From a virus (lineage: Duplodnaviria > Caudoviricetes), in IMG/VR virus record IMGVR_UViG_3300025674_000014: a stretch of 64,000 nucleotides of DNA. One strand, given 5' to 3'. The notes beneath the pieces were generated by a model that ran no database searches, was not told the origin of the DNA, and saw only the letters and a program-made list of their open reading frames with translations. Of the stretch, positions 26,407-53,072 are shown piece by piece (positions within the stretch are counted from its first letter, which is position 1; the number at the start of each line of letters is the position of its first letter). The translations under genes were made by a program, and so were the position numbers.

Positions 26407-26412
26407 TATTTA
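26407..26412 (-). promoter_or_regulatory. gp55-type late promoter (sulfotransferase-HtrL operon)
   Basis: TAAATA, ATG 6 nt later. Confidence 0.7.
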
Positions 26413-26417
26413 AACAG

Positions 26418-26445
26418 TTGAACCTAAAAGTAAATATCCTATTAT
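26418..26445 (+). promoter_or_regulatory. early/middle-type promoter for folE
   Basis: TTGAAC-N16-TATTAT, ATG 6 nt later. Confidence 0.8.
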
Positions 26446-26451
26446 TTTAGT

Positions 26452-27137: not shown

Positions 27138-27695
27138 GTGGCTAAGAAAAGTACAGATGATTTAGGTTTTGAAAAGGCTATACTTAAAGTATGTAGTTTA
27201 AGAGAAAAAAATCTTTATGGTCCTGCTTCTAAAGCCGCGGACGATCCTGAAACCGGTATTGTTATTAAACAAAAACCGGCCTTCTTTGTTATTAAGGACT
27301 GTGCTACTATTGCTAAACGATATATGTTTATCATGTGTTACGGTTCCTTAACTGATCCAATTGGGCAACTAAAAGGTAAAGTAAGTGTTGAGGATATTGA
27401 GAATTTTGTATCTAGAAGTCGTAATAAAGCTAATTATGAAACTCGTCAATTACTCAACCTTATTTTTTCTGATATTAATAGTTATATACCTGGTTTAAGA
27501 GAAACTGGTGCTGATGAGTTAGATATTAACTTTGATACTATTGATGAAGAAAATGTATACGGTGATTACGAAGATTTAGGTAATGAACGTATTAAAGAAA
27601 TGGAAAAACAACAGGAGATTCAAAAATCCAAAATCGATTTGAATAATGATCAAGCTGTTGTTGATAAATTAGTTGAAGTATTTGTACTAGACTAA
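27138..27695 (+). CDS. hypothetical protein
   Basis: GTG start 5 nt after TAAATA; acidic C-terminal half. Confidence 0.55.
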   Translation: MAKKSTDDLGFEKAILKVCSLREKNLYGPASKAADDPETGIVIKQKPAFFVIKDCATIAKRYMFIMCYGSLTDPIGQLKGKVSVEDIENFVSRSRNKANYETRQLLNLIFSDINSYIPGLRETGADELDINFDTIDEENVYGDYEDLGNERIKEMEKQQEIQKSKIDLNNDQAVVDKLVEVFVLD

Positions 27696-28129
27696 ACTTC
27701 TTCCTTATCTACATCGATAAGTTTATCAATTTTTGATACAAAATCTTTTCCAACAAGTACTGGGTACTCATTTTCTGATCTATCAGCTATAGAAAAAGGA
27801 ACGTCTTTATATTTTTTACCGTCAAATACAATATCGAATAAAACCACAGGTCTTTCTTCTTTATTACCTGAACCAATATGTATAACAACGGTATCTACTA
27901 CTTGCTTTTTAAGTTTTTTGTTGTTAACGGTACCTATAATAATATTATCACCGCGTTTACTTAATATATCACCGTGTAATACGTTATAAGCTCCATTACC
28001 TGAATCTACTTTAGCTTCAACATCACCTACTGAATCAATAGTAATAGGTTCAACTAAGCCGATAACATCATTATCGGCTATTTCGTTTAAAAAGTAGTTT
28101 CTATATATTGTATTAAACCCTTTATTCAT
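27692..28129 (-). CDS. retropepsin-like peptidase (RimK-associated/Zn_protease-like)
   Basis: AKVDSGNG (D-S/T-G), ERPVV, YPVLVGKDF; likely start 28129. Confidence 0.7.
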   Translation of the reverse strand: MNKGFNTIYRNYFLNEIADNDVIGLVEPITIDSVGDVEAKVDSGNGAYNVLHGDILSKRGDNIIIGTVNNKKLKKQVVDTVVIHIGSGNKEERPVVLFDIVFDGKKYKDVPFSIADRSENEYPVLVGKDFVSKIDKLIDVDKEEV

Positions 28130-28307
28130 CGTTTTTTCGTGACTCAAGAATATTTTTTCTTTCGTCTCTTGCTAGTTTAACTAAATCTGCTAAAGCTTTA
28201 CGTGCTCTAGTAGAAGCAGACTTATTATTCTTTTCAGTAAATAAGTCAATATTTTTAACATAAGATGCTACTAAGTCCAAAATTTCTTGTTTTTTAGATT
28301 CTGACAT
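28122..28307 (-). CDS. histone H1-like Hc1-family nucleoid protein
   Basis: NKSASTRARKAL.DL.KLA...RK pattern of the Hc1 N-terminal domain. Confidence 0.6.
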   Translation of the reverse strand: MSESKKQEILDLVASYVKNIDLFTEKNNKSASTRARKALADLVKLARDERKNILESRKNDE

Positions 28308-28366
28308 AATAATAATTATGGTTATGTTAATATTTATCTACGCAAGTTGATTAATATGGTATTTAT

Positions 28367-28372
28367 TAAATA
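28367..28372 (+). promoter_or_regulatory. gp55-type late promoter (outer membrane protein)
   Basis: TAAATA, ATG 8 nt later. Confidence 0.6.
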
Positions 28373-28380
28373 ATATGTAC

Positions 28381-29136
28381 ATGAAGAAACTTATTTTTTC
28401 TGTATTATTGGCTGCCGTTACTACTGCTGGTAACGCGCAGGTTAGTGTTGATGCAGGCTATACCTCTGATTTTACAATCGCTGGTACAGCAAGAGCAAAG
28501 GACACAGCTGTCATTGGAATCACGGGGGCAAAGGCTTTAGGAAAAGGATTTACTCTTTACGGGTTTAATTACTTCTTGCCAACAAATGACGGACGTTCTA
28601 AATCTTATACTGATCATCCAGGTTCGGGTCATCAGCATGTAGATGGTATTAAGAATGCTCTTGAAACTAGTAGTCAAAACCATTTTGGTGTTGGACTTGC
28701 TTATGACGTTAATTCACTCGGTGATTTTTCTTTCACCGCTGACGTTCAAGCTGTTTATCACTTGGTAAACGGTCCTCTTCAGGATTCTTTCCAGTATGGA
28801 ATTGGTGCAACATTTGATAGCCTTCCTTTAATTAGTAAGGTTGCAAGTGTTTCTGTTTACTACATGGAAGATATTGATCTTGAAATGGATGGTTTTCAGA
28901 TTGGTTTGAGTAGAGTCTTTGAAAACGTGTTAGTTGATAACGTTAATTTGACTCCTAAGGCCGGTGTCTATTTGTTTGATAGTTTTGATGCTTATTATGC
29001 TTCATTGAGAGCTGATTATACTAAGTATGCTATCAGACCTTATGTTCAGGTAAGTTATTTTGATAACGACTTGACTGGAGATCTTGCACTTGACAATGAT
29101 GTTCAGTATACGGTCGGTCTTAACTATTCCTTCTAA
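28381..29136 (+). CDS. outer membrane beta-barrel protein (TIGR02001/porin-like)
   Basis: Signal peptide MKKLIFSVLLAAVTTAGNA|Q; alternating amphipathic strands; C-terminal YTVGLNYSF BAM-type signal. Confidence 0.75.
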   Translation: MKKLIFSVLLAAVTTAGNAQVSVDAGYTSDFTIAGTARAKDTAVIGITGAKALGKGFTLYGFNYFLPTNDGRSKSYTDHPGSGHQHVDGIKNALETSSQNHFGVGLAYDVNSLGDFSFTADVQAVYHLVNGPLQDSFQYGIGATFDSLPLISKVASVSVYYMEDIDLEMDGFQIGLSRVFENVLVDNVNLTPKAGVYLFDSFDAYYASLRADYTKYAIRPYVQVSYFDNDLTGDLALDNDVQYTVGLNYSF

Positions 29137-29156
29137 ATTATTATCAATAAAAGCAC

Positions 29157-29182
29157 AAAGCCCGCTTCGGCGGGCTTTTTTT
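29157..29182 (+). terminator. rho-independent terminator (cUUCGg loop), between convergent genes
   Basis: aaagcccgc-ttcg-gcgggc-ttttttt. Confidence 0.92.
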
Positions 29183-30590
29183 ATGCATCTTCAAGCCAGT
29201 TAGCAGAAGCAAAGTATAACCCTGATCCTGAACCGCTCTTAAGAGGTGTAACAAAAATATGATATTCATCGGAATTACCTTGAATATCATGACCAAACGT
29301 AACAAAACTTTCTTTTAATGTAGCTAAATCAGCAGCGTTATCTTTAGATACAAAATACGTTGCAAGAACTTGACCACCACTTATGTAAGTAAATCCACTA
29401 CCACCTACACCGTAAGCTACAGCAGAATCTTGAATAGATTTTAATGTAAATGTACCGGTATATGAAGGGTTTCTAATTATTCTAATTCTAGTGTCAATAT
29501 TAGAATCAGTATTAAGAACACTAAAATCAGAAGGCGTAACAACAGCGTTTAATCTTGTAGATGATAAAGCTAACATCATGATAGAACATTCTGTTTTAAC
29601 TGGAATAGAAATTTCTACATTACTTGTTTCTAATGCAGTATCAATTGAACGTAGTGAACCTTGTTTACTAACACCGCCTTCAGAATTAACATTAGCACAA
29701 ATTTGTAATAATTGACCAGGTGTCGAACCGTTTTGTCTTATTTCAGCTCTAATAGGTAAGTTAGGATTTTGAATGAAAACAGAACTAATAGCATTAGCAT
29801 TAGTAACTTGATGACAATAGTAAGTTAACCCATCAACAACAAAACCATATCTAATTCTACCTACACCTAACCATTCAAAATCGATAGTAAATATCTGAGA
29901 TTTAGTAAAATCTAATGTTATACCGCTCGCTCCATTACCATCCATTGTATCGATGTTCCAACTACTTTGAGGTACGGTAATATCAGCAGCGTTACCATTA
30001 TAATTAGATACATTTACAGAAACAACATTATTACTATTTTTAAAATAAACACCATTATACTGATCGTAATCACCAGACGTGTTAGATTTGTATGCACCAT
30101 AAAGCATATCTATATCATTACCACCACTTAATATCCCTGTAAAAAGAAACTGTTGTGATTTGCCTGGTTGATACCCAAAACTTTGAAATGTTTGTCTTAT
30201 AGCATAATCACCGCTGTTTACGGTATACATTTTAGTACCGGAATCTCCAGAACTAAATTCACAAGCTCCTCCACCATTACCAAAATCATCGTATACAAAA
30301 TCTCTCTTACTGTATAACTGTTTTGCTGAAAATATTGCAGTAGGGTTACTAACTCTTAAACGACCAAAAGCATCTATAGCACCACCATCACCAAATGGTA
30401 CGGGGTTGGTTTGTGATTGACCTATATCGTATGTTAAAACTGCTGTTTTAGGAAAAACCTGCGTTTTACTACTTAAATCATTTTCCCAATAAGCAGTAAC
30501 TGGAGGAAAATTAGTATCATTAATTATTTCAACAAACTTTTGATATTCATAGGTTTGAAACCCACCGTTTAATACTGTTTTGAGTGACAT
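29181..30590 (-). CDS. putative virion structural protein
   Basis: DAFGRLRVS.P...F, IF.IDFEWLGVG.IR.G motifs typical of large aquatic phage structural proteins; last gene of late operon. Confidence 0.5.
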   Translation of the reverse strand: MSLKTVLNGGFQTYEYQKFVEIINDTNFPPVTAYWENDLSSKTQVFPKTAVLTYDIGQSQTNPVPFGDGGAIDAFGRLRVSNPTAIFSAKQLYSKRDFVYDDFGNGGGACEFSSGDSGTKMYTVNSGDYAIRQTFQSFGYQPGKSQQFLFTGILSGGNDIDMLYGAYKSNTSGDYDQYNGVYFKNSNNVVSVNVSNYNGNAADITVPQSSWNIDTMDGNGASGITLDFTKSQIFTIDFEWLGVGRIRYGFVVDGLTYYCHQVTNANAISSVFIQNPNLPIRAEIRQNGSTPGQLLQICANVNSEGGVSKQGSLRSIDTALETSNVEISIPVKTECSIMMLALSSTRLNAVVTPSDFSVLNTDSNIDTRIRIIRNPSYTGTFTLKSIQDSAVAYGVGGSGFTYISGGQVLATYFVSKDNAADLATLKESFVTFGHDIQGNSDEYHIFVTPLKSGSGSGLYFASANWLEDA

Positions 30591-30593
30591 ATA

Positions 30594-30851
30594 CTATTTC
30601 TTTTTCTTCCAATTAACTCTTTTAGAGCTTTTCTTTTGATACATTTTACCCTTTATACTTTTACATGCACTTTTAGTAGGTCTGCATGCAGGGTAGCTAC
30701 CACCTGACTTTTTAGATTTACGTCCACAAGGACCACCAGTTTTACAATTTACCCATCCAGAGAATTTCTTACCGGTTTTAGGGTCCTTACCACCTCTTTT
30801 AAACCATTGATGTAAATTATCTGAAGCTTCGTAAAACTGTTTAAAAGTCAT
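30594..30851 (-). CDS. small basic Cys-containing head protein
   Basis: MTFKQFYEA; LHQWF...WVNC..GGPCGR...YPACRP. Confidence 0.65.
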   Translation of the reverse strand: MTFKQFYEASDNLHQWFKRGGKDPKTGKKFSGWVNCKTGGPCGRKSKKSGGSYPACRPTKSACKSIKGKMYQKKSSKRVNWKKKK

Positions 30852-30949
30852 TTTCTCTTCTTACCTACACGCTTTTTGGTAACGGTTACTGTCTTGCGTG
30901 TACGAATTCCGTTTTTTGTACTCTCTTTTACTATTTGTCTTTTTCCCAT
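30848..30949 (-). CDS. 33-aa highly basic peptide (not in ORF track)
   Basis: MGKRQIVKESTKNGIRTRKTVTVTKKRVGKKRK; TAAATA 5 nt upstream; ATGA overlap with next gene. Confidence 0.65.
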   Translation of the reverse strand: MGKRQIVKESTKNGIRTRKTVTVTKKRVGKKRK

Positions 30950-30954
30950 ATTAT

Positions 30955-30960
30955 TATTTA
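30955..30960 (-). promoter_or_regulatory. gp55-type late promoter
   Basis: TAAATA, ATG 5 nt later. Confidence 0.7.
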
Positions 30961-31125
30961 CTATTTTTTATTTTTCTTCCAAATTTTACCTTTACGGCAT
31001 CTAACTATAGCGCCTGATTTATATGCAGATGTTTTCTTACCATATACTTTATCAGCACGTGATTTACAACGATCTTCTGATAGTAAGTTAAGTATATCTT
31101 CTATTTTTTTGTTAAAGTTATTCAT
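30961..31125 (-). CDS. 54-aa basic protein (not in ORF track)
   Basis: MNNFNKKIEDILNLLSEDRCKSRADKVYGKKTSAYKSGAIVRCRKGKIWKKNKK; TAATG overlap with upstream gene. Confidence 0.7.
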   Translation of the reverse strand: MNNFNKKIEDILNLLSEDRCKSRADKVYGKKTSAYKSGAIVRCRKGKIWKKNKK

Positions 31126-31427
31126 TACCAATTTTGACATGAAAGTTTCTTAGCTGTACCGGGTTTTGCAGAAGAACATTTGTGTCTTGCTCTAAAGCTT
31201 TTACGTCTTTTAGGATTACTCTTCTTAATGCGACTATTAGGGTCTCCGTAATGGACCCTTTTGTATCCCTTACCGGAAGGGTTCTTTACACACTTCATAT
31301 ACTTCTTACTTTTAAGGTAAGAGCTAGCTTGTTTAGTAGCTTTAGTGCAACGGCTACCTTTTTTCTCCATAATCTTAACCAATTCAAAGTCTTCGGTAAG
31401 AAAATCACACAATGCATCAAAATCCAT
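31125..31427 (-). CDS. small basic Cys-containing head protein
   Basis: VHYGDPN..IKKSNP.RRKSFRARHKC...SC.NW; TATAAATA promoter. Confidence 0.65.
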   Translation of the reverse strand: MDFDALCDFLTEDFELVKIMEKKGSRCTKATKQASSYLKSKKYMKCVKNPSGKGYKRVHYGDPNSRIKKSNPKRRKSFRARHKCSSAKPGTAKKLSCQNW

Positions 31428-31432
31428 ACAAT

Positions 31433-31444
31433 TATTTATAAATA
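31433..31444. promoter_or_regulatory. palindromic bidirectional late promoter TATTTATAAATA
   Basis: Full T4 consensus TATAAATA on both strands; ATG 5 nt away on each side (31427 and 31450). Confidence 0.85.
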
Positions 31445-31449
31445 TTAGT

Positions 31450-31977
31450 ATGAATAAAGACGAAAAGAGTTTACAAGAACTCTATGAAGCTACACTTTCA
31501 CCTCTTAACGGTGTAGGGTTAGGTCCTCAAGCTGAAGATTCAGCAGGTGGATTAGGAAGCCCTACTATGACCAAAATAGATGTTCAAGATGTTGAAACAC
31601 CTGAAGATGAAGAAAGGGAACAGATTGACGATCACGAGGTTGATATGGCTAAATCAGAGCTTTATAAATTAGCTGAATACGCCCCTAAGTTACTTGATCT
31701 AATTAAAAATTATGATGAATTAGAAGGATGGGTTCAAGCTAAACTTACCAAAGCAAGTGATTATGTTTCTGATATCTACCACTACCTTAAGTATGAAGAA
31801 GAAGCTAATGTACATAGTCATGAAGTTGATGAAGTGCCTCCTGCCCCTATGGGTGGTTGTGGTGGTCCTGCAGCAGTTGAAGTCGATATTGATGAACAAC
31901 CACCAGGTGAAATGGGTGATGAAGAGAAAAAGGGTGTAAACGACGAAGTTATTAAAATGTTAATGAGTCGTTTCTAA
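31450..31977 (+). CDS. acidic late protein (prohead core/internal protein-like)
   Basis: Start at 31450 (MNKDEKSLQELYEA) 5 nt after TATAAATA; MAKSEL...EGWVQAKLTKA.DY. Confidence 0.6.
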   Translation: MNKDEKSLQELYEATLSPLNGVGLGPQAEDSAGGLGSPTMTKIDVQDVETPEDEEREQIDDHEVDMAKSELYKLAEYAPKLLDLIKNYDELEGWVQAKLTKASDYVSDIYHYLKYEEEANVHSHEVDEVPPAPMGGCGGPAAVEVDIDEQPPGEMGDEEKKGVNDEVIKMLMSRF

Positions 31978-32585
31978 TCAGAAGGTAAGTTACTTAATTT
32001 ATCAAATACATAACCTACGAGGCTTTTATTGTTTCGTAGGTTTTCTGGTATATATGGTAACAAATTTTCGATCGAAAGGTTATCTAACAAGTCTCTGAAG
32101 TTGCTAGCACTAAATGCTCCAGATTCATCACCAACCACATCGGCGACATCTATATTAACTGTTACACCGGCGGGTAAACCTTTTAATATACCTGAATATC
32201 TAGCTTTATCATTTCCTTTACCACCAACACCAACTATAATTTGATCCCCTGGTAAAGCATCTTCTCTTACAAAGTCATAAACTTCACCTACTGCATTTTT
32301 AGCTGTGGTTACATTAACACCTCTTAACCCCATTTCAGCAACATAACGTCTTAAAATATCAGCTGCTACATCAGCTGGTACATATTTACCACCCGGGGTA
32401 TATCTTCTTGATTTAGGTGAAGGGTCGGTTACGATAACATTTACAATGCCATCTTGACCAACTTTATTTTTAAAGCTTTCAATTAACTTAAAATGACCAA
32501 GGTGAGGTGGTTTAAATGAACCAGGAAAAAGAACTATCTTTCTACCTGTTTGCTCTTTGATGAAAAACCACTTAAATGCTGTCAT
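31974..32585 (-). CDS. HIGH-superfamily nucleotidyltransferase (NadD/CoaD/cytidylyltransferase-like)
   Basis: FPGSFKPPHLGH, G..D..RY, SASNFR. Confidence 0.75.
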   Translation of the reverse strand: MTAFKWFFIKEQTGRKIVLFPGSFKPPHLGHFKLIESFKNKVGQDGIVNVIVTDPSPKSRRYTPGGKYVPADVAADILRRYVAEMGLRGVNVTTAKNAVGEVYDFVREDALPGDQIIVGVGGKGNDKARYSGILKGLPAGVTVNIDVADVVGDESGAFSASNFRDLLDNLSIENLLPYIPENLRNNKSLVGYVFDKLSNLPSD

Positions 32586-40496: not shown

Positions 40497-41289
40497 TTTA
40501 ACCATTTTAGTTTTATCATCAGACCACTATCAACCTATTATCAAGGTGTGGGAAAAGTATTTTGTTAAACATTGGTCTGATTGCCCTTATAAAGTTGTTT
40601 CTGTTTGTAACTTTGATCACTATGATAGTGAGGTTATTAACTTTGAAACTACTAACATTAAACCACAACCTGATGCATCTCATTTTAAAGGTATGCTTCT
40701 TCATGCTTTAGACAAAATAGATACCAAATATATTTTGTACATGTGTGAAGATCAAATACTAGTTAGAGATGCAGTGACTGATAATTTTACACAAGCTATT
40801 AGTTATATGGACAAAAACGATATAACTAAAATTAGATGTTTATCAATGCCTGAACCTGATACTGATTTAGATATTGAAGAAGGTATCATTAATAATGAAA
40901 ATTTTGGTTTTATCTCACTTGATAATGAGTATAGAAATTCACTTCAAGCTGCTATCTGGAATAAAGAACGTTTTGTTGAGTTGCTTAAAACACGAGAAGA
41001 TGTATATTCTGGGTGGGTGCTTGAAACAGATGAAAACTTCAGAGAGTATTCTAAGAAATGGAAATATGTTGCATGTAAACACGGTAAAGGTGGTACATTT
41101 TTAGATAGGTATCCTGGTCAAGGTGATTCACCTTTGCTTAATTACGTGGAGTTAGTAAGGTGGGGTAAATTTGATAGGTTATATATTGAATATTTTCGCG
41201 ACATATTTAAAAAAGACAATTTCACCGTCGATGTTTCCGAATATGATAAATTCGGTGCAGGATTAACACCAGAAGAATTACCTCAGTAG
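40480..41289 (+). CDS. GT-A-like glycosyltransferase
   Basis: ILVLSSD.Y....W, YILYMCED, SLQAAIW, W..E. Confidence 0.5.
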   Translation: MKTDSDLTILVLSSDHYQPIIKVWEKYFVKHWSDCPYKVVSVCNFDHYDSEVINFETTNIKPQPDASHFKGMLLHALDKIDTKYILYMCEDQILVRDAVTDNFTQAISYMDKNDITKIRCLSMPEPDTDLDIEEGIINNENFGFISLDNEYRNSLQAAIWNKERFVELLKTREDVYSGWVLETDENFREYSKKWKYVACKHGKGGTFLDRYPGQGDSPLLNYVELVRWGKFDRLYIEYFRDIFKKDNFTVDVSEYDKFGAGLTPEELPQ

Positions 41290-41290
41290 C

Positions 41291-41318
41291 TTGACTGTTT
41301 AAGTATATATATTATTAT
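41291..41318 (+). promoter_or_regulatory. early/middle-type promoter for uvsW
   Basis: TTGACT-N16-TATTAT, ATG 7 nt later. Confidence 0.8.
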
Positions 41319-41325
41319 ATCTTAA

Positions 41326-48030: not shown

Positions 48031-49248
48031 ATGTTTATACCAATTAATCATGGTAATCCTTATGGGTCTAATCCTTTTGGTAACCCTTTTGGGAACGCAG
48101 GGTTTAAACAACCTAATCAAGAACAAAAACAACAACGGCCTCAAGATCAGGCTAGGATGCCTCGTTTTCTTAACTATGTAGCTGATTATGGTGGTTGTGG
48201 TTACTGGAGATGTATATGGCCTGAGTATCTTCTTAATGCCGACGGTAGGTGTATGGTACATACATCAACTGTTATGGTTACAGATCCTAATTATTATAAA
48301 GGACTTACAGCAGTTAAGTTTCAAAGACAAGCTGCACCTCATCAAAAACAATTTATTGAATTTATTAGTAAACTTTCTAAAGAATTTAACTTCAGGGTTA
48401 TCTATGAAATTGATGATATACCATTTAGAGAAGATATCCCTGATTACAATAAACATAAACACGCTTTTACTAGTGATGAAATAAGGAACAATATTCAATC
48501 TATTATGGAAACTTGTGGTAACATGTCTGTTACATGTAAGTTCATGAAAGATTATTTTGCATCTAAATTAGACCCATCAGTTGAAATAGATGTTATACCT
48601 AATTTTATTCCTAAGTTTTGGATTGGTAACTACTACTATAGGGAAAAGATTGAAGAGGATTATGAACGTAATAAGAAACGTCCTCGTATTTGCTGGGCTG
48701 GTTCTGGTGCTCATATTGACGTAGAAAGAAGAATAAAAGGTAAAGACGACTTCTATCATATTAATGAAGTTGTAAGAAAAACTGTTGATGATTTTAAATG
48801 GGTATTCTTTGGTGGTATTTCTCAAGAATTATCTGATTTAGCAAGATCTGGTAAAGTTGAATTCATACCTTGGGCTAAATTATATAATTACCCTGAAAAG
48901 CTATTCACATCTAACATTAATATGTTTATTGCTCCTTTGTCAGATAATAATTTTAACAAAGCTAAGAGCGATCTAAAGTATATTGAAGCTAGTGCTCTTG
49001 GTATCCCTATTGCATGTCAGGATATTTGTACATATGAGGATGCTCCAATTAAGTTCAAGACTGGAGATGAAATGATTGATCGGATAAAAGAGGTACTTGG
49101 GGATGAAAGACGGTATATTAAAGAGTCGGTCAATGGTCGTAATGTAGCAGAATCCAGATTCTTAGAAACTGAAGAGAATCTATATCAATATTATGACAAT
49201 TATATGTACGGTAGGAGTGATTCACGCCGTAAATATCTTACTACTTGA
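48031..49248 (+). CDS. GT-B (GT4-like) glycosyltransferase
   Basis: GCGYWR..WP, YEIDD, IPNF.P, ICWAGS..H, APL.DN.FN.AKSDLK.IE. Confidence 0.7.
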   Translation: MFIPINHGNPYGSNPFGNPFGNAGFKQPNQEQKQQRPQDQARMPRFLNYVADYGGCGYWRCIWPEYLLNADGRCMVHTSTVMVTDPNYYKGLTAVKFQRQAAPHQKQFIEFISKLSKEFNFRVIYEIDDIPFREDIPDYNKHKHAFTSDEIRNNIQSIMETCGNMSVTCKFMKDYFASKLDPSVEIDVIPNFIPKFWIGNYYYREKIEEDYERNKKRPRICWAGSGAHIDVERRIKGKDDFYHINEVVRKTVDDFKWVFFGGISQELSDLARSGKVEFIPWAKLYNYPEKLFTSNINMFIAPLSDNNFNKAKSDLKYIEASALGIPIACQDICTYEDAPIKFKTGDEMIDRIKEVLGDERRYIKESVNGRNVAESRFLETEENLYQYYDNYMYGRSDSRRKYLTT

Positions 49249-49272
49249 TGATATATAGATTGTTCATATACT
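49245..49272 (+). promoter_or_regulatory. early/middle-type promoter for DNA polymerase
   Basis: TTGATG-N16-TATACT, ATG 6 nt later. Confidence 0.8.
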
Positions 49273-49278
49273 ATTTGT

Positions 49279-53010: not shown

Positions 53011-53033
53011 AAGCCCCGAAAGGGGCTTTTTTT
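53011..53033 (+). terminator. rho-independent terminator (GAAA loop)
   Basis: aagcccc-gaaa-ggggc-ttttttt. Confidence 0.92.
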
Positions 53034-53038
53034 GTGTC

Positions 53039-53066
53039 TTGATATAATTAGGTTATATCTTATTAT
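53039..53066 (+). promoter_or_regulatory. early/middle-type promoter for uvsX
   Basis: TTGATA-N16-TATTAT, ATG 6 nt later. Confidence 0.8.
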
Positions 53067-53072
53067 AGGTTT

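Follow-up and report, generated by a model that had tools for sequence, protein, structure and literature searches.

A predicted 12-stranded outer-membrane barrel encoded beside an Hc1-like gene in an uncultured aquatic T4-like phage

Does bp 28381–29182 of a viral metagenomic DNA encode a protein bound for the outer membrane of the host, and if so, what would a phage do with it? This question is raised by the IMG/VR record IMGVR_UViG_3300025674_000014 (Duplodnaviria; Caudoviricetes), of which a stretch of 64,000 nucleotides, called the window hereafter, was analyzed; all coordinates refer to the window. The source is an uncultured aquatic T4-like phage, and an original prediction, made from the sequence alone, had described the region as a stand-alone unit consisting of an outer-membrane beta-barrel gene with its own promoter and terminator. 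In this report, the gene is referred to as the barrel gene and its product as P0001.

On the plus strand, an open reading frame (ORF) was found at bp 28375–29136 with two candidate start codons, ATG 28375 and ATG 28381. Because ATG 28381 (MKK...) was invariant in five homologous loci and ATG 28375 was not kept, the former was taken as the start, which is the one that had been proposed originally. The coding sequence, at bp 28381–29136 with the stop codon included, specifies 251 residues, has homologues, and is under purifying selection, with ratios of nonsynonymous to synonymous substitution (dN/dS) of 0.08–0.30 between loci. Reading by eye revealed an N-terminus composed of MKK, a 13-residue hydrophobic core and a putative signal-peptidase-I type site between AGNA and Q, suggesting a Sec signal peptide of residues 1–19 (bp 28381–28437, plus strand) whose cleavage site is predicted. 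M1, K2 and K3 were nearly invariant in the family alignment, and residues 2–15 were modelled as a helix by AlphaFold2. Since the signal contains no Cys, P0001 is not a lipoprotein. At the other end, the C-terminal strand (bp 29107–29133, plus strand) carried the barrel-assembly signal YTVGLNYSF, with hydrophobic or aromatic residues at positions −1, −3, −5, −7 and −9; F251 and G246 were invariant in the 16 family sequences. P0001 was the sole credible Sec-exported protein encoded within the 64-kb window.

An AlphaFold2 model of P0001, built on a shallow alignment of 16 family sequences, had 12 strands, a mean predicted local distance difference test score (pLDDT) of 83 and a predicted template modelling (pTM) score of 0.75, with pLDDT values below 50 only at residues 1–6 and 71–91. 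A second structure model, that of family member P0018 (28% identical to P0001), also had 12 strands, with a pLDDT of 87. Along the strands, V/A/Y/L/F/I on one face alternated with G/T/S/Q/D on the opposite one, and small, polar residues predominated on the lumen side (11 Gly, 10 Thr, 8 Ser, 7 Gln, 7 Asp, 5 Lys/Arg and 2 His). The family-conserved polar residues R38, Q99, H101, D121, H127, S136, D164 and N229 pointed to the lumen and not to the lipid, most of them being near the putative outer mouth as judged by strand order. All structural matches of P0001 were outer-membrane barrels. P0001 is thereby modelled as a 12-stranded beta-barrel, and because the signal peptide, the canonical C-terminal signal and the lipid/lumen alternation all agree on a membrane barrel, it very probably sits in the host outer membrane. 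The signal peptide, amphipathic strands and terminal aromatic barrel-assembly signal of the original prediction were thus all recovered, the last with its terminal F invariant family-wide; the predicted structure was a barrel rather than a non-barrel fold, and nothing tied P0001 to tail or baseplate proteins.

Apart from the loop between strands 3 and 4, the putative external loops of the model were only 2–10 residues long. Barrels of known structure have periplasmic termini, and since the termini of P0001 were taken to be periplasmic likewise, the strand 3–4 loop (residues 67–98; bp 28579–28674, plus strand) is presumed to be extracellular. This loop, in the core of which the pLDDT was below 50, was variable and marked by indels. 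Of 17 loop positions, 10 varied among the five closest homologues, versus 60 of 215 positions elsewhere (Fisher p = 0.012). The His-rich segment DHPGSGHQHVDG, residues 78–89 (bp 28612–28647), fell within this only long loop. In one 78%-identical homologue, the three His were replaced by Q, G and R, leaving no His there; in the 51–57%-identical relatives, a 16-residue deletion took out the segment, and more distant members were also devoid of it. Environmental RNA contigs diverged from the window mainly at bp 28608–28650. It was also observed that one seawater RNA contig had 13 differences within these 43 nt, over the His-rich loop, and only sparse ones elsewhere in the gene. These observations mark the His-rich loop as a variable part of the surface rather than a conserved metal site. 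The original prediction had correctly located this segment; its suggestion of metal uptake is hardly supported, because the loop was deleted in relatives and His-free in one homologue. Proximity to phoH, likewise taken as a hint of uptake, is no evidence for the function of the barrel gene, as phoH is located 5.3 kb away.

How widespread the protein is was addressed by several searches. No Pfam or NCBIfam model matched P0001 at E values up to 10, and no PHROG match was obtained, the only rows being at chance level (TDE1717, E = 0.12; phrog_5474, E = 0.35). No match was found among 50,697 phage records, either by tblastn of the barrel protein or by blastn of the surrounding 6 kb, and a profile search against the PDB sequences returned nothing at E values up to 10. 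A word-indexed search detected eight close homologues with 51–99% identity, exhaustive phmmer gave only 11 matches among 1.84 billion representatives, and P0020–P0022 were the only additions from two profile searches of a 5.8-billion set. All relatives with informative context, down to about 25% identity, lay in phage-like DNA, and the family searches found no bacterial member with informative context; P0016, on a 1.1-kb contig, was uninformative either way. In addition, the five nearest structure clusters of the ESM Atlas were all viral, with 50–236 members each and template modelling (TM) scores of 0.75–0.81.

Gene order at the locus was conserved to a considerable depth. The order of Hc1-like gene, barrel gene and virion gene was repeated at 54% identity (L001 and L002), and the pairing of the Hc1-like gene with the barrel gene held at 32% identity (P0013), whereas the adjacency of the virion gene was lost in L019 and L020. 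Farther away, 1) P0018 was encoded on a freshwater contig of 140 kb together with PhoH and sulfotransferase genes, 2) P0015 on a 62-kb contig with small ORFs and giant fibre-like genes, 3) P0014 was flanked by a SET-domain gene and a ribonucleotide reductase gene, and 4) P0012 and P0022 each followed a dCMP deaminase gene, the P0022 genome being that of a siphophage with lambda-type tail genes. No partner gene was found to recur beside the distant family members. A 452-residue gene following the freshwater homologue was considered as a counterpart of the virion gene of the window and turned out to be unrelated. A close-alignment search for the locus yielded five viral contigs and one contig labelled as a Gemmatimonadota metagenome-assembled genome (MAG) (L020; GenBank:JBDGYO010000117.1). 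Because this 15-kb contig had 33% G+C and Hc1–barrel synteny as in the phage, its sequence is probably that of a phage fragment mis-binned into a bacterial MAG.

The barrel gene was flanked by signals of its own on both sides. Upstream, a conserved divergent regulatory region (bp 28308–28380) lay between the Hc1-like gene on the minus strand and the barrel gene on the plus strand. The 67-bp upstream region showed 91% mean column identity in six loci, whereas the coding DNA of the distant loci was only 63–66% identical to the window; being better conserved than the coding DNA, it contains a real regulatory element. A sigma-70-like promoter (bp 28347–28374, plus strand), detected by a consensus scan, was composed of TTGATT, a 16-nt spacer and AATAAT and ended 6 nt before the ATG; in the six loci, GTTGAT and TATTAAATAATA did not change. 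Downstream, an intrinsic terminator (bp 29157–29182, plus strand) began twenty bases 3′ of the stop codon, between convergent genes, and scored on the minus strand as well. Its hairpin, at bp 29157–29178, has a C(UUCG)G loop on a stem of 9 bp, 6 of which are G-C pairs, and leads into 7 T ending at bp 29182. Its folding energy was −17.2 kcal/mol (z = −3.9 versus shuffles), and it was kept in all six loci, with two compensatory stem changes (CCCG/CGGG to CTCA/TGAG) in L018. The strong cUUCGg terminator of the original prediction is therefore sustained by the T run, conservation and compensatory changes, and its promoter by the conserved sigma-70-like element, although the generic consensus scan alone was not enriched (10 sites versus 8.8 expected from shuffles). 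With its own regulatory region and terminator, and with no recurrent partner gene among distant members, the barrel gene behaves as the stand-alone unit that had been proposed.

Careful inspection of the other genes of the window suggested a common promoter layout. TTGA showed a peak at −37 to −33 relative to the start codons, and a sigma-70-like pair ending 4–9 nt before the start was present in 16 of 77 genes, versus 1.1% of all plus-strand ATGs. The same layout preceded the genes for DNA polymerase, a helicase, folE and queD, and examples of the pair near a start were located at bp 26412–26451, 41286–41325, 49239–49278 and 53033–53072. A Shine-Dalgarno-like motif was detected in only 2 of 78 genes. 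Judging from these sequence features, mRNAs of the phage appear to have little or no leader, and the mRNA of the barrel gene is apparently of this kind, its transcription start being inferred and not mapped. An exact T4 late promoter, TATAAATA, was absent upstream of the barrel gene. On balance, the barrel gene is probably expressed early or in the middle of infection by the host polymerase, possibly with a late contribution, since the −35 element is invariant and the promoter class is shared with replication genes. The canonical TTGAnn/TAtaaT elements also argue against a Bacteroidota host. It was noticed that bp 30594–31977 contained small K/R-rich genes and a 175-residue acidic ORF at bp 31450, with back-to-back TATAAATA motifs (bp 31433–31444) 5 nt ahead of the ATGs of these genes; as a motif, TATAAATA looks like the late promoter class of the phage. 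The genes at bp 31974–32585 and 31125–31427 had nTAAATA 5–6 nt before the ATG and no TTGA at −35.

The stretch was found in DNA runs of many studies, covering aquatic, freshwater, seawater, biofilm and fish-associated samples, and the barrel gene was covered by contigs from metatranscriptomes of salt marsh (2018) and seawater (2025), four runs in all. The starts of the RNA contigs were at bp 28390, 28416, 28435 and 28489, with sequencing adapter abutting directly at bp 28390 and 28416; in three runs from two habitats the contigs ended at bp 29142–29153, just before the hairpin, and in the fourth run (X20) the last RNA contig ended at bp 28880. None of the listed RNA contigs crossed from the Hc1 side into the barrel gene. 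These data are moderate evidence that the barrel gene is transcribed in nature, and give a weak hint that the contig ends reflect transcript ends. The RNA contigs also gave hardly any coverage of bp 29154–29277 and of the greater part of the virion gene, which, since they are assembled contigs, is not counted as a finding.

What P0001 does in the membrane is a separate question. The reading ranked first, and held tentatively, sees P0001 as a diffusion channel of the KdgM/NanC/Tsx type, small and substrate-specific. The mRNA, monocistronic and probably leaderless, would extend from the sigma-70-type promoter to the UUCG terminator, the host Sec pathway and barrel-assembly machinery would insert the product into the host outer membrane, and P0001 would then raise the permeability of this membrane to some small polar solute during phage replication. 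The best structural matches of P0001 were small specific channels. The conserved polar residues face the lumen and therefore fit a functional interior, and little conserved surface is available to an external partner because the loops are short apart from the one variable loop. Three distant members adjoin nucleotide-metabolism genes, and Tsx is a nucleoside channel; taken together, these neighbours and Tsx provide a link to nucleosides that is a lead only. By analogy, transport genes are reported to make up most of the neighbours of phage barrels with 10–22 strands (bioRxiv 10.64898/2026.10.24.761521), and the CsgG pore of pelagimyophages has been suggested to boost uptake (PMC7029224).

Several points weigh against such a channel and its supposed timing. 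No transporter or binding-protein gene was present beside the barrel gene, nor was there any other credible exported protein in the 64-kb window, and no channel family model in Pfam, NCBIfam or PHROGs matched P0001. A late-like TTAAATAAT motif overlaps the −10 element of the barrel-gene promoter, which bears on the time of expression. The RNA data, being assembled contigs, can neither prove transcript ends nor exclude carried-over DNA.

Possible, and placed second to the channel, is surface remodelling or superinfection exclusion, in which the barrel would mask, bind or displace a phage receptor and so shield the infected cell from a second infection, or keep progeny virions from being lost on debris. 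The only long loop is variable, indel-prone and a hot spot of population variation, as expected if it were exposed at the surface and under pressure; a promoter class of the early type would be suitable; and a precedent is offered by the lambda Lom protein, reported to act on LamB (cited in bioRxiv 10.64898/2026.10.24.761521). On the other hand, the remaining putative external loops have only 2–10 residues, the family-conserved residues point to the lumen, and the variable loop is missing in the 51–57%-identical relatives.

A role in the envelope or in lysis, ranked third, appears improbable. P0001 would then hold cell-wall or lysis proteins at the outer membrane, as an anchor or scaffold, or stand in for the outer-membrane half of a spanin; MipA, which has been proposed as a scaffold for MltA and penicillin-binding protein (PBP) 1B, can serve as the model. 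This possibility draws on P0022, whose gene is followed immediately by a weak holin-like gene, then by one for a 201-residue protein with two terminal membrane segments and by a CHAP endolysin-like gene (region L013:10001-12310). P0022 aligned to the barrel-family profile with an hhalign probability of 98.8% and passed the Pfam MipA threshold (31.9 versus 24.2 bits), but it did so via its last 55 residues only, and the family profile gave an hhalign probability of only 3.4% against E. coli MipA, that is, no match. Moreover, the neighbours of the barrel gene here and in the syntenic relatives are the Hc1-like gene and the virion protein gene or small ORFs, not lysis genes, and its promoter belongs to the class of the replication genes.

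Binding or uptake of a metal (Cu, Zn or Ni) through the His-rich loop, comparable to the outer-membrane copper channels PcoB and CopB, is very unlikely given that the His are replaced at 78% identity and the segment is deleted at 51–57% identity and missing in distant members, and the CopB/PcoB model had no match to P0001. Least credible of all is that P0001 is a virion or other soluble beta-rich protein with a misleading barrel prediction: the virion structural gene phrog_1645 adjoins the barrel gene and the model was built on a shallow alignment of 16 sequences, but the signal peptide, C-terminal signal and lipid/lumen alternation indicate a membrane barrel, two independent models agree for members that share only 28% identity, the structural matches are exclusively outer-membrane barrels, and the virion-gene adjacency is lost in L019 and L020.

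With regard to the surroundings, the window has about 31% G+C and carries a T4-type replication module with a family-B DNA polymerase, SbcCD-like proteins and helicases, the polymerase being about 32% identical to cyanomyophage gp43. It also contains folE, queD, phoH, sulfotransferase and glycosyltransferase genes and no tRNAs. The CheckV completeness of related fragments implies a genome of about 175–215 kb. Beyond the diderm envelope and the sigma-70-type promoters, no clue to the host was found. The gene divergent from the barrel gene (bp 28122–28307, minus strand) encodes a 61-residue Hc1-type histone-like protein matching PF07432 (E = 2e-13), and the convergent one (bp 29181–30590, minus strand) is the virion structural gene matched by phrog_1645. 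One seawater RNA contig joined bp 29442 to bp 30018 via 23 other letters, which would replace 575 nt of the latter gene; from its sequence, this may be a strain variant. Next to the Hc1-like gene, a 151-residue protein encoded at bp 27692–28147 (minus strand) matched PF05618 (RimB-like/“putative ATP-dependent zinc protease”, E = 5e-8); a 2-oxoglutarate-Fe(II) oxygenase gene adjoining the PF05618 gene in relatives was missing from the window.

A more far-reaching view, which we regard as rather unlikely when taken as a whole, is that P0001 represents an old phage-specific barrel lineage. Such a lineage would have passed vertically through a deep branch of the aquatic T4-like phages, its locus fixed beside the Hc1-like gene down to about 30% identity, would occur also in unrelated siphophages, would have no cellular counterpart by sequence, and would be a dedicated tool rewiring outer-membrane permeability early, for example for the import of nucleosides or other building blocks. 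If true, this would represent an envelope-level auxiliary function and not a recent pick-up from a host. Phage proteins in the host outer membrane can alter both the uptake of the infected cell and its susceptibility to other phages, and the barrel family is a reasonable choice for testing, for the first time, what a 12-stranded phage barrel does. The outcome would bear on how the envelope of slow-growing hosts is handled by large aquatic phages; as the general idea has been published, the gain is incremental.

Among the known barrels, KdgM/NanC (PDB 4FQE, 4PR7, 2WJQ and 8XUA; PF06178) and Tsx (PDB 1TLW) were structural matches with identities to P0001 of only 10–14%. The 12-stranded monomeric barrel fold of KdgM/NanC is common to the P0001 model, whereas the PF06178 hidden Markov model (HMM) did not match P0001 in a Pfam scan at E values up to 10. 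KdgM/NanC and Tsx are encoded by bacterial chromosomal genes, unlike the phage-borne P0001.

The Gcw_chp/TorF-type porins (PF09694, TIGR02001) resemble P0001 in size and strand number. The sixth ESM Atlas cluster, of which 98% was Gcw_chp and which was commonest in Verrucomicrobiota, was the bacterial cluster nearest to P0001, with TM scores of 0.74 by query and 0.61 by target. The comparison is one between predicted models, and the fold alone shows no kinship. Feature-based matches to Gcw_chp scored 0.95, but the Gcw_chp and TIGR02001 HMMs had no match to P0001 (Pfam and NCBIfam, E values up to 10), to the phage records with homologues or to the MAG of L020 (E values up to 1). The TIGR02001-like style of Verrucomicrobiota noted in the original prediction is thus a fair structural lead, from which neither membership of that family nor the donor can be established.

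MipA/OmpV (PF06629), 12-stranded according to AlphaFold (PMC10936184), is a barrel of a size similar to P0001, and one of the near viral Atlas clusters had MipA matches on 18% of its members. The MipA HMM did not match P0001 or the viral records G001 and G002, MipA was absent from 41 Gemmatimonadota genomes, and no MltA-, PBP- or MipB-like partner gene was present. Filing P0001 under MipA, KdgM or Gcw_chp was accordingly rejected, since a common 12-stranded architecture and nothing more could be demonstrated.

Phage barrels offer a closer comparison in biology, though not in sequence. Lambda Lom/Ail has 8 strands, versus 12 in the P0001 model, and Pfam gave no match; the cyanophage Phage_OMP/DUF680 proteins are half-barrels with a Pfam family of their own (PF24653), which was unmatched in the Pfam scan of P0001 and in four homologue-carrying viral records (E values up to 1). 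The “outer membrane protein” of Aeromonas phage phiAS5 resembles P0001 in structure only (TM 0.56/0.62); it is one of the barrel proteins contained in BFVD, which also come from phages nt-1 and S-CBWM1. A recent survey reported 1,603 barrel proteins with 6–22 strands in 1,303 huge phages (18%), 12-stranded ones included, with evidence of transcription and the same candidate functions (bioRxiv 10.64898/2026.10.24.761521). In view of these 1,603 barrels and the three BFVD phages, the original view of phage barrels as uncommon in lytic T4-like phages is out of date. Like P0001, phage-encoded barrels in general bear signal peptides, are bound for the host outer membrane, occur in large aquatic phages and have been reported to be transcribed in natural samples; the P0001 family differs from them in having no sequence match and a fixed locus beside the Hc1-like gene down to 32% identity. 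The CsgG/CsgF system of T4-like pelagimyophages (PMC7029224) is likewise an outer-membrane channel component of lytic aquatic phages, whereas CsgG is a lipoprotein nonamer encoded in an operon and P0001 a predicted single-chain 12-stranded barrel whose gene stands alone. Phage-borne outer-membrane barrels are therefore already known, and the novelty here lies in this particular unnamed family, in how deeply it is conserved at its fixed locus, and in the detail of its regulation.
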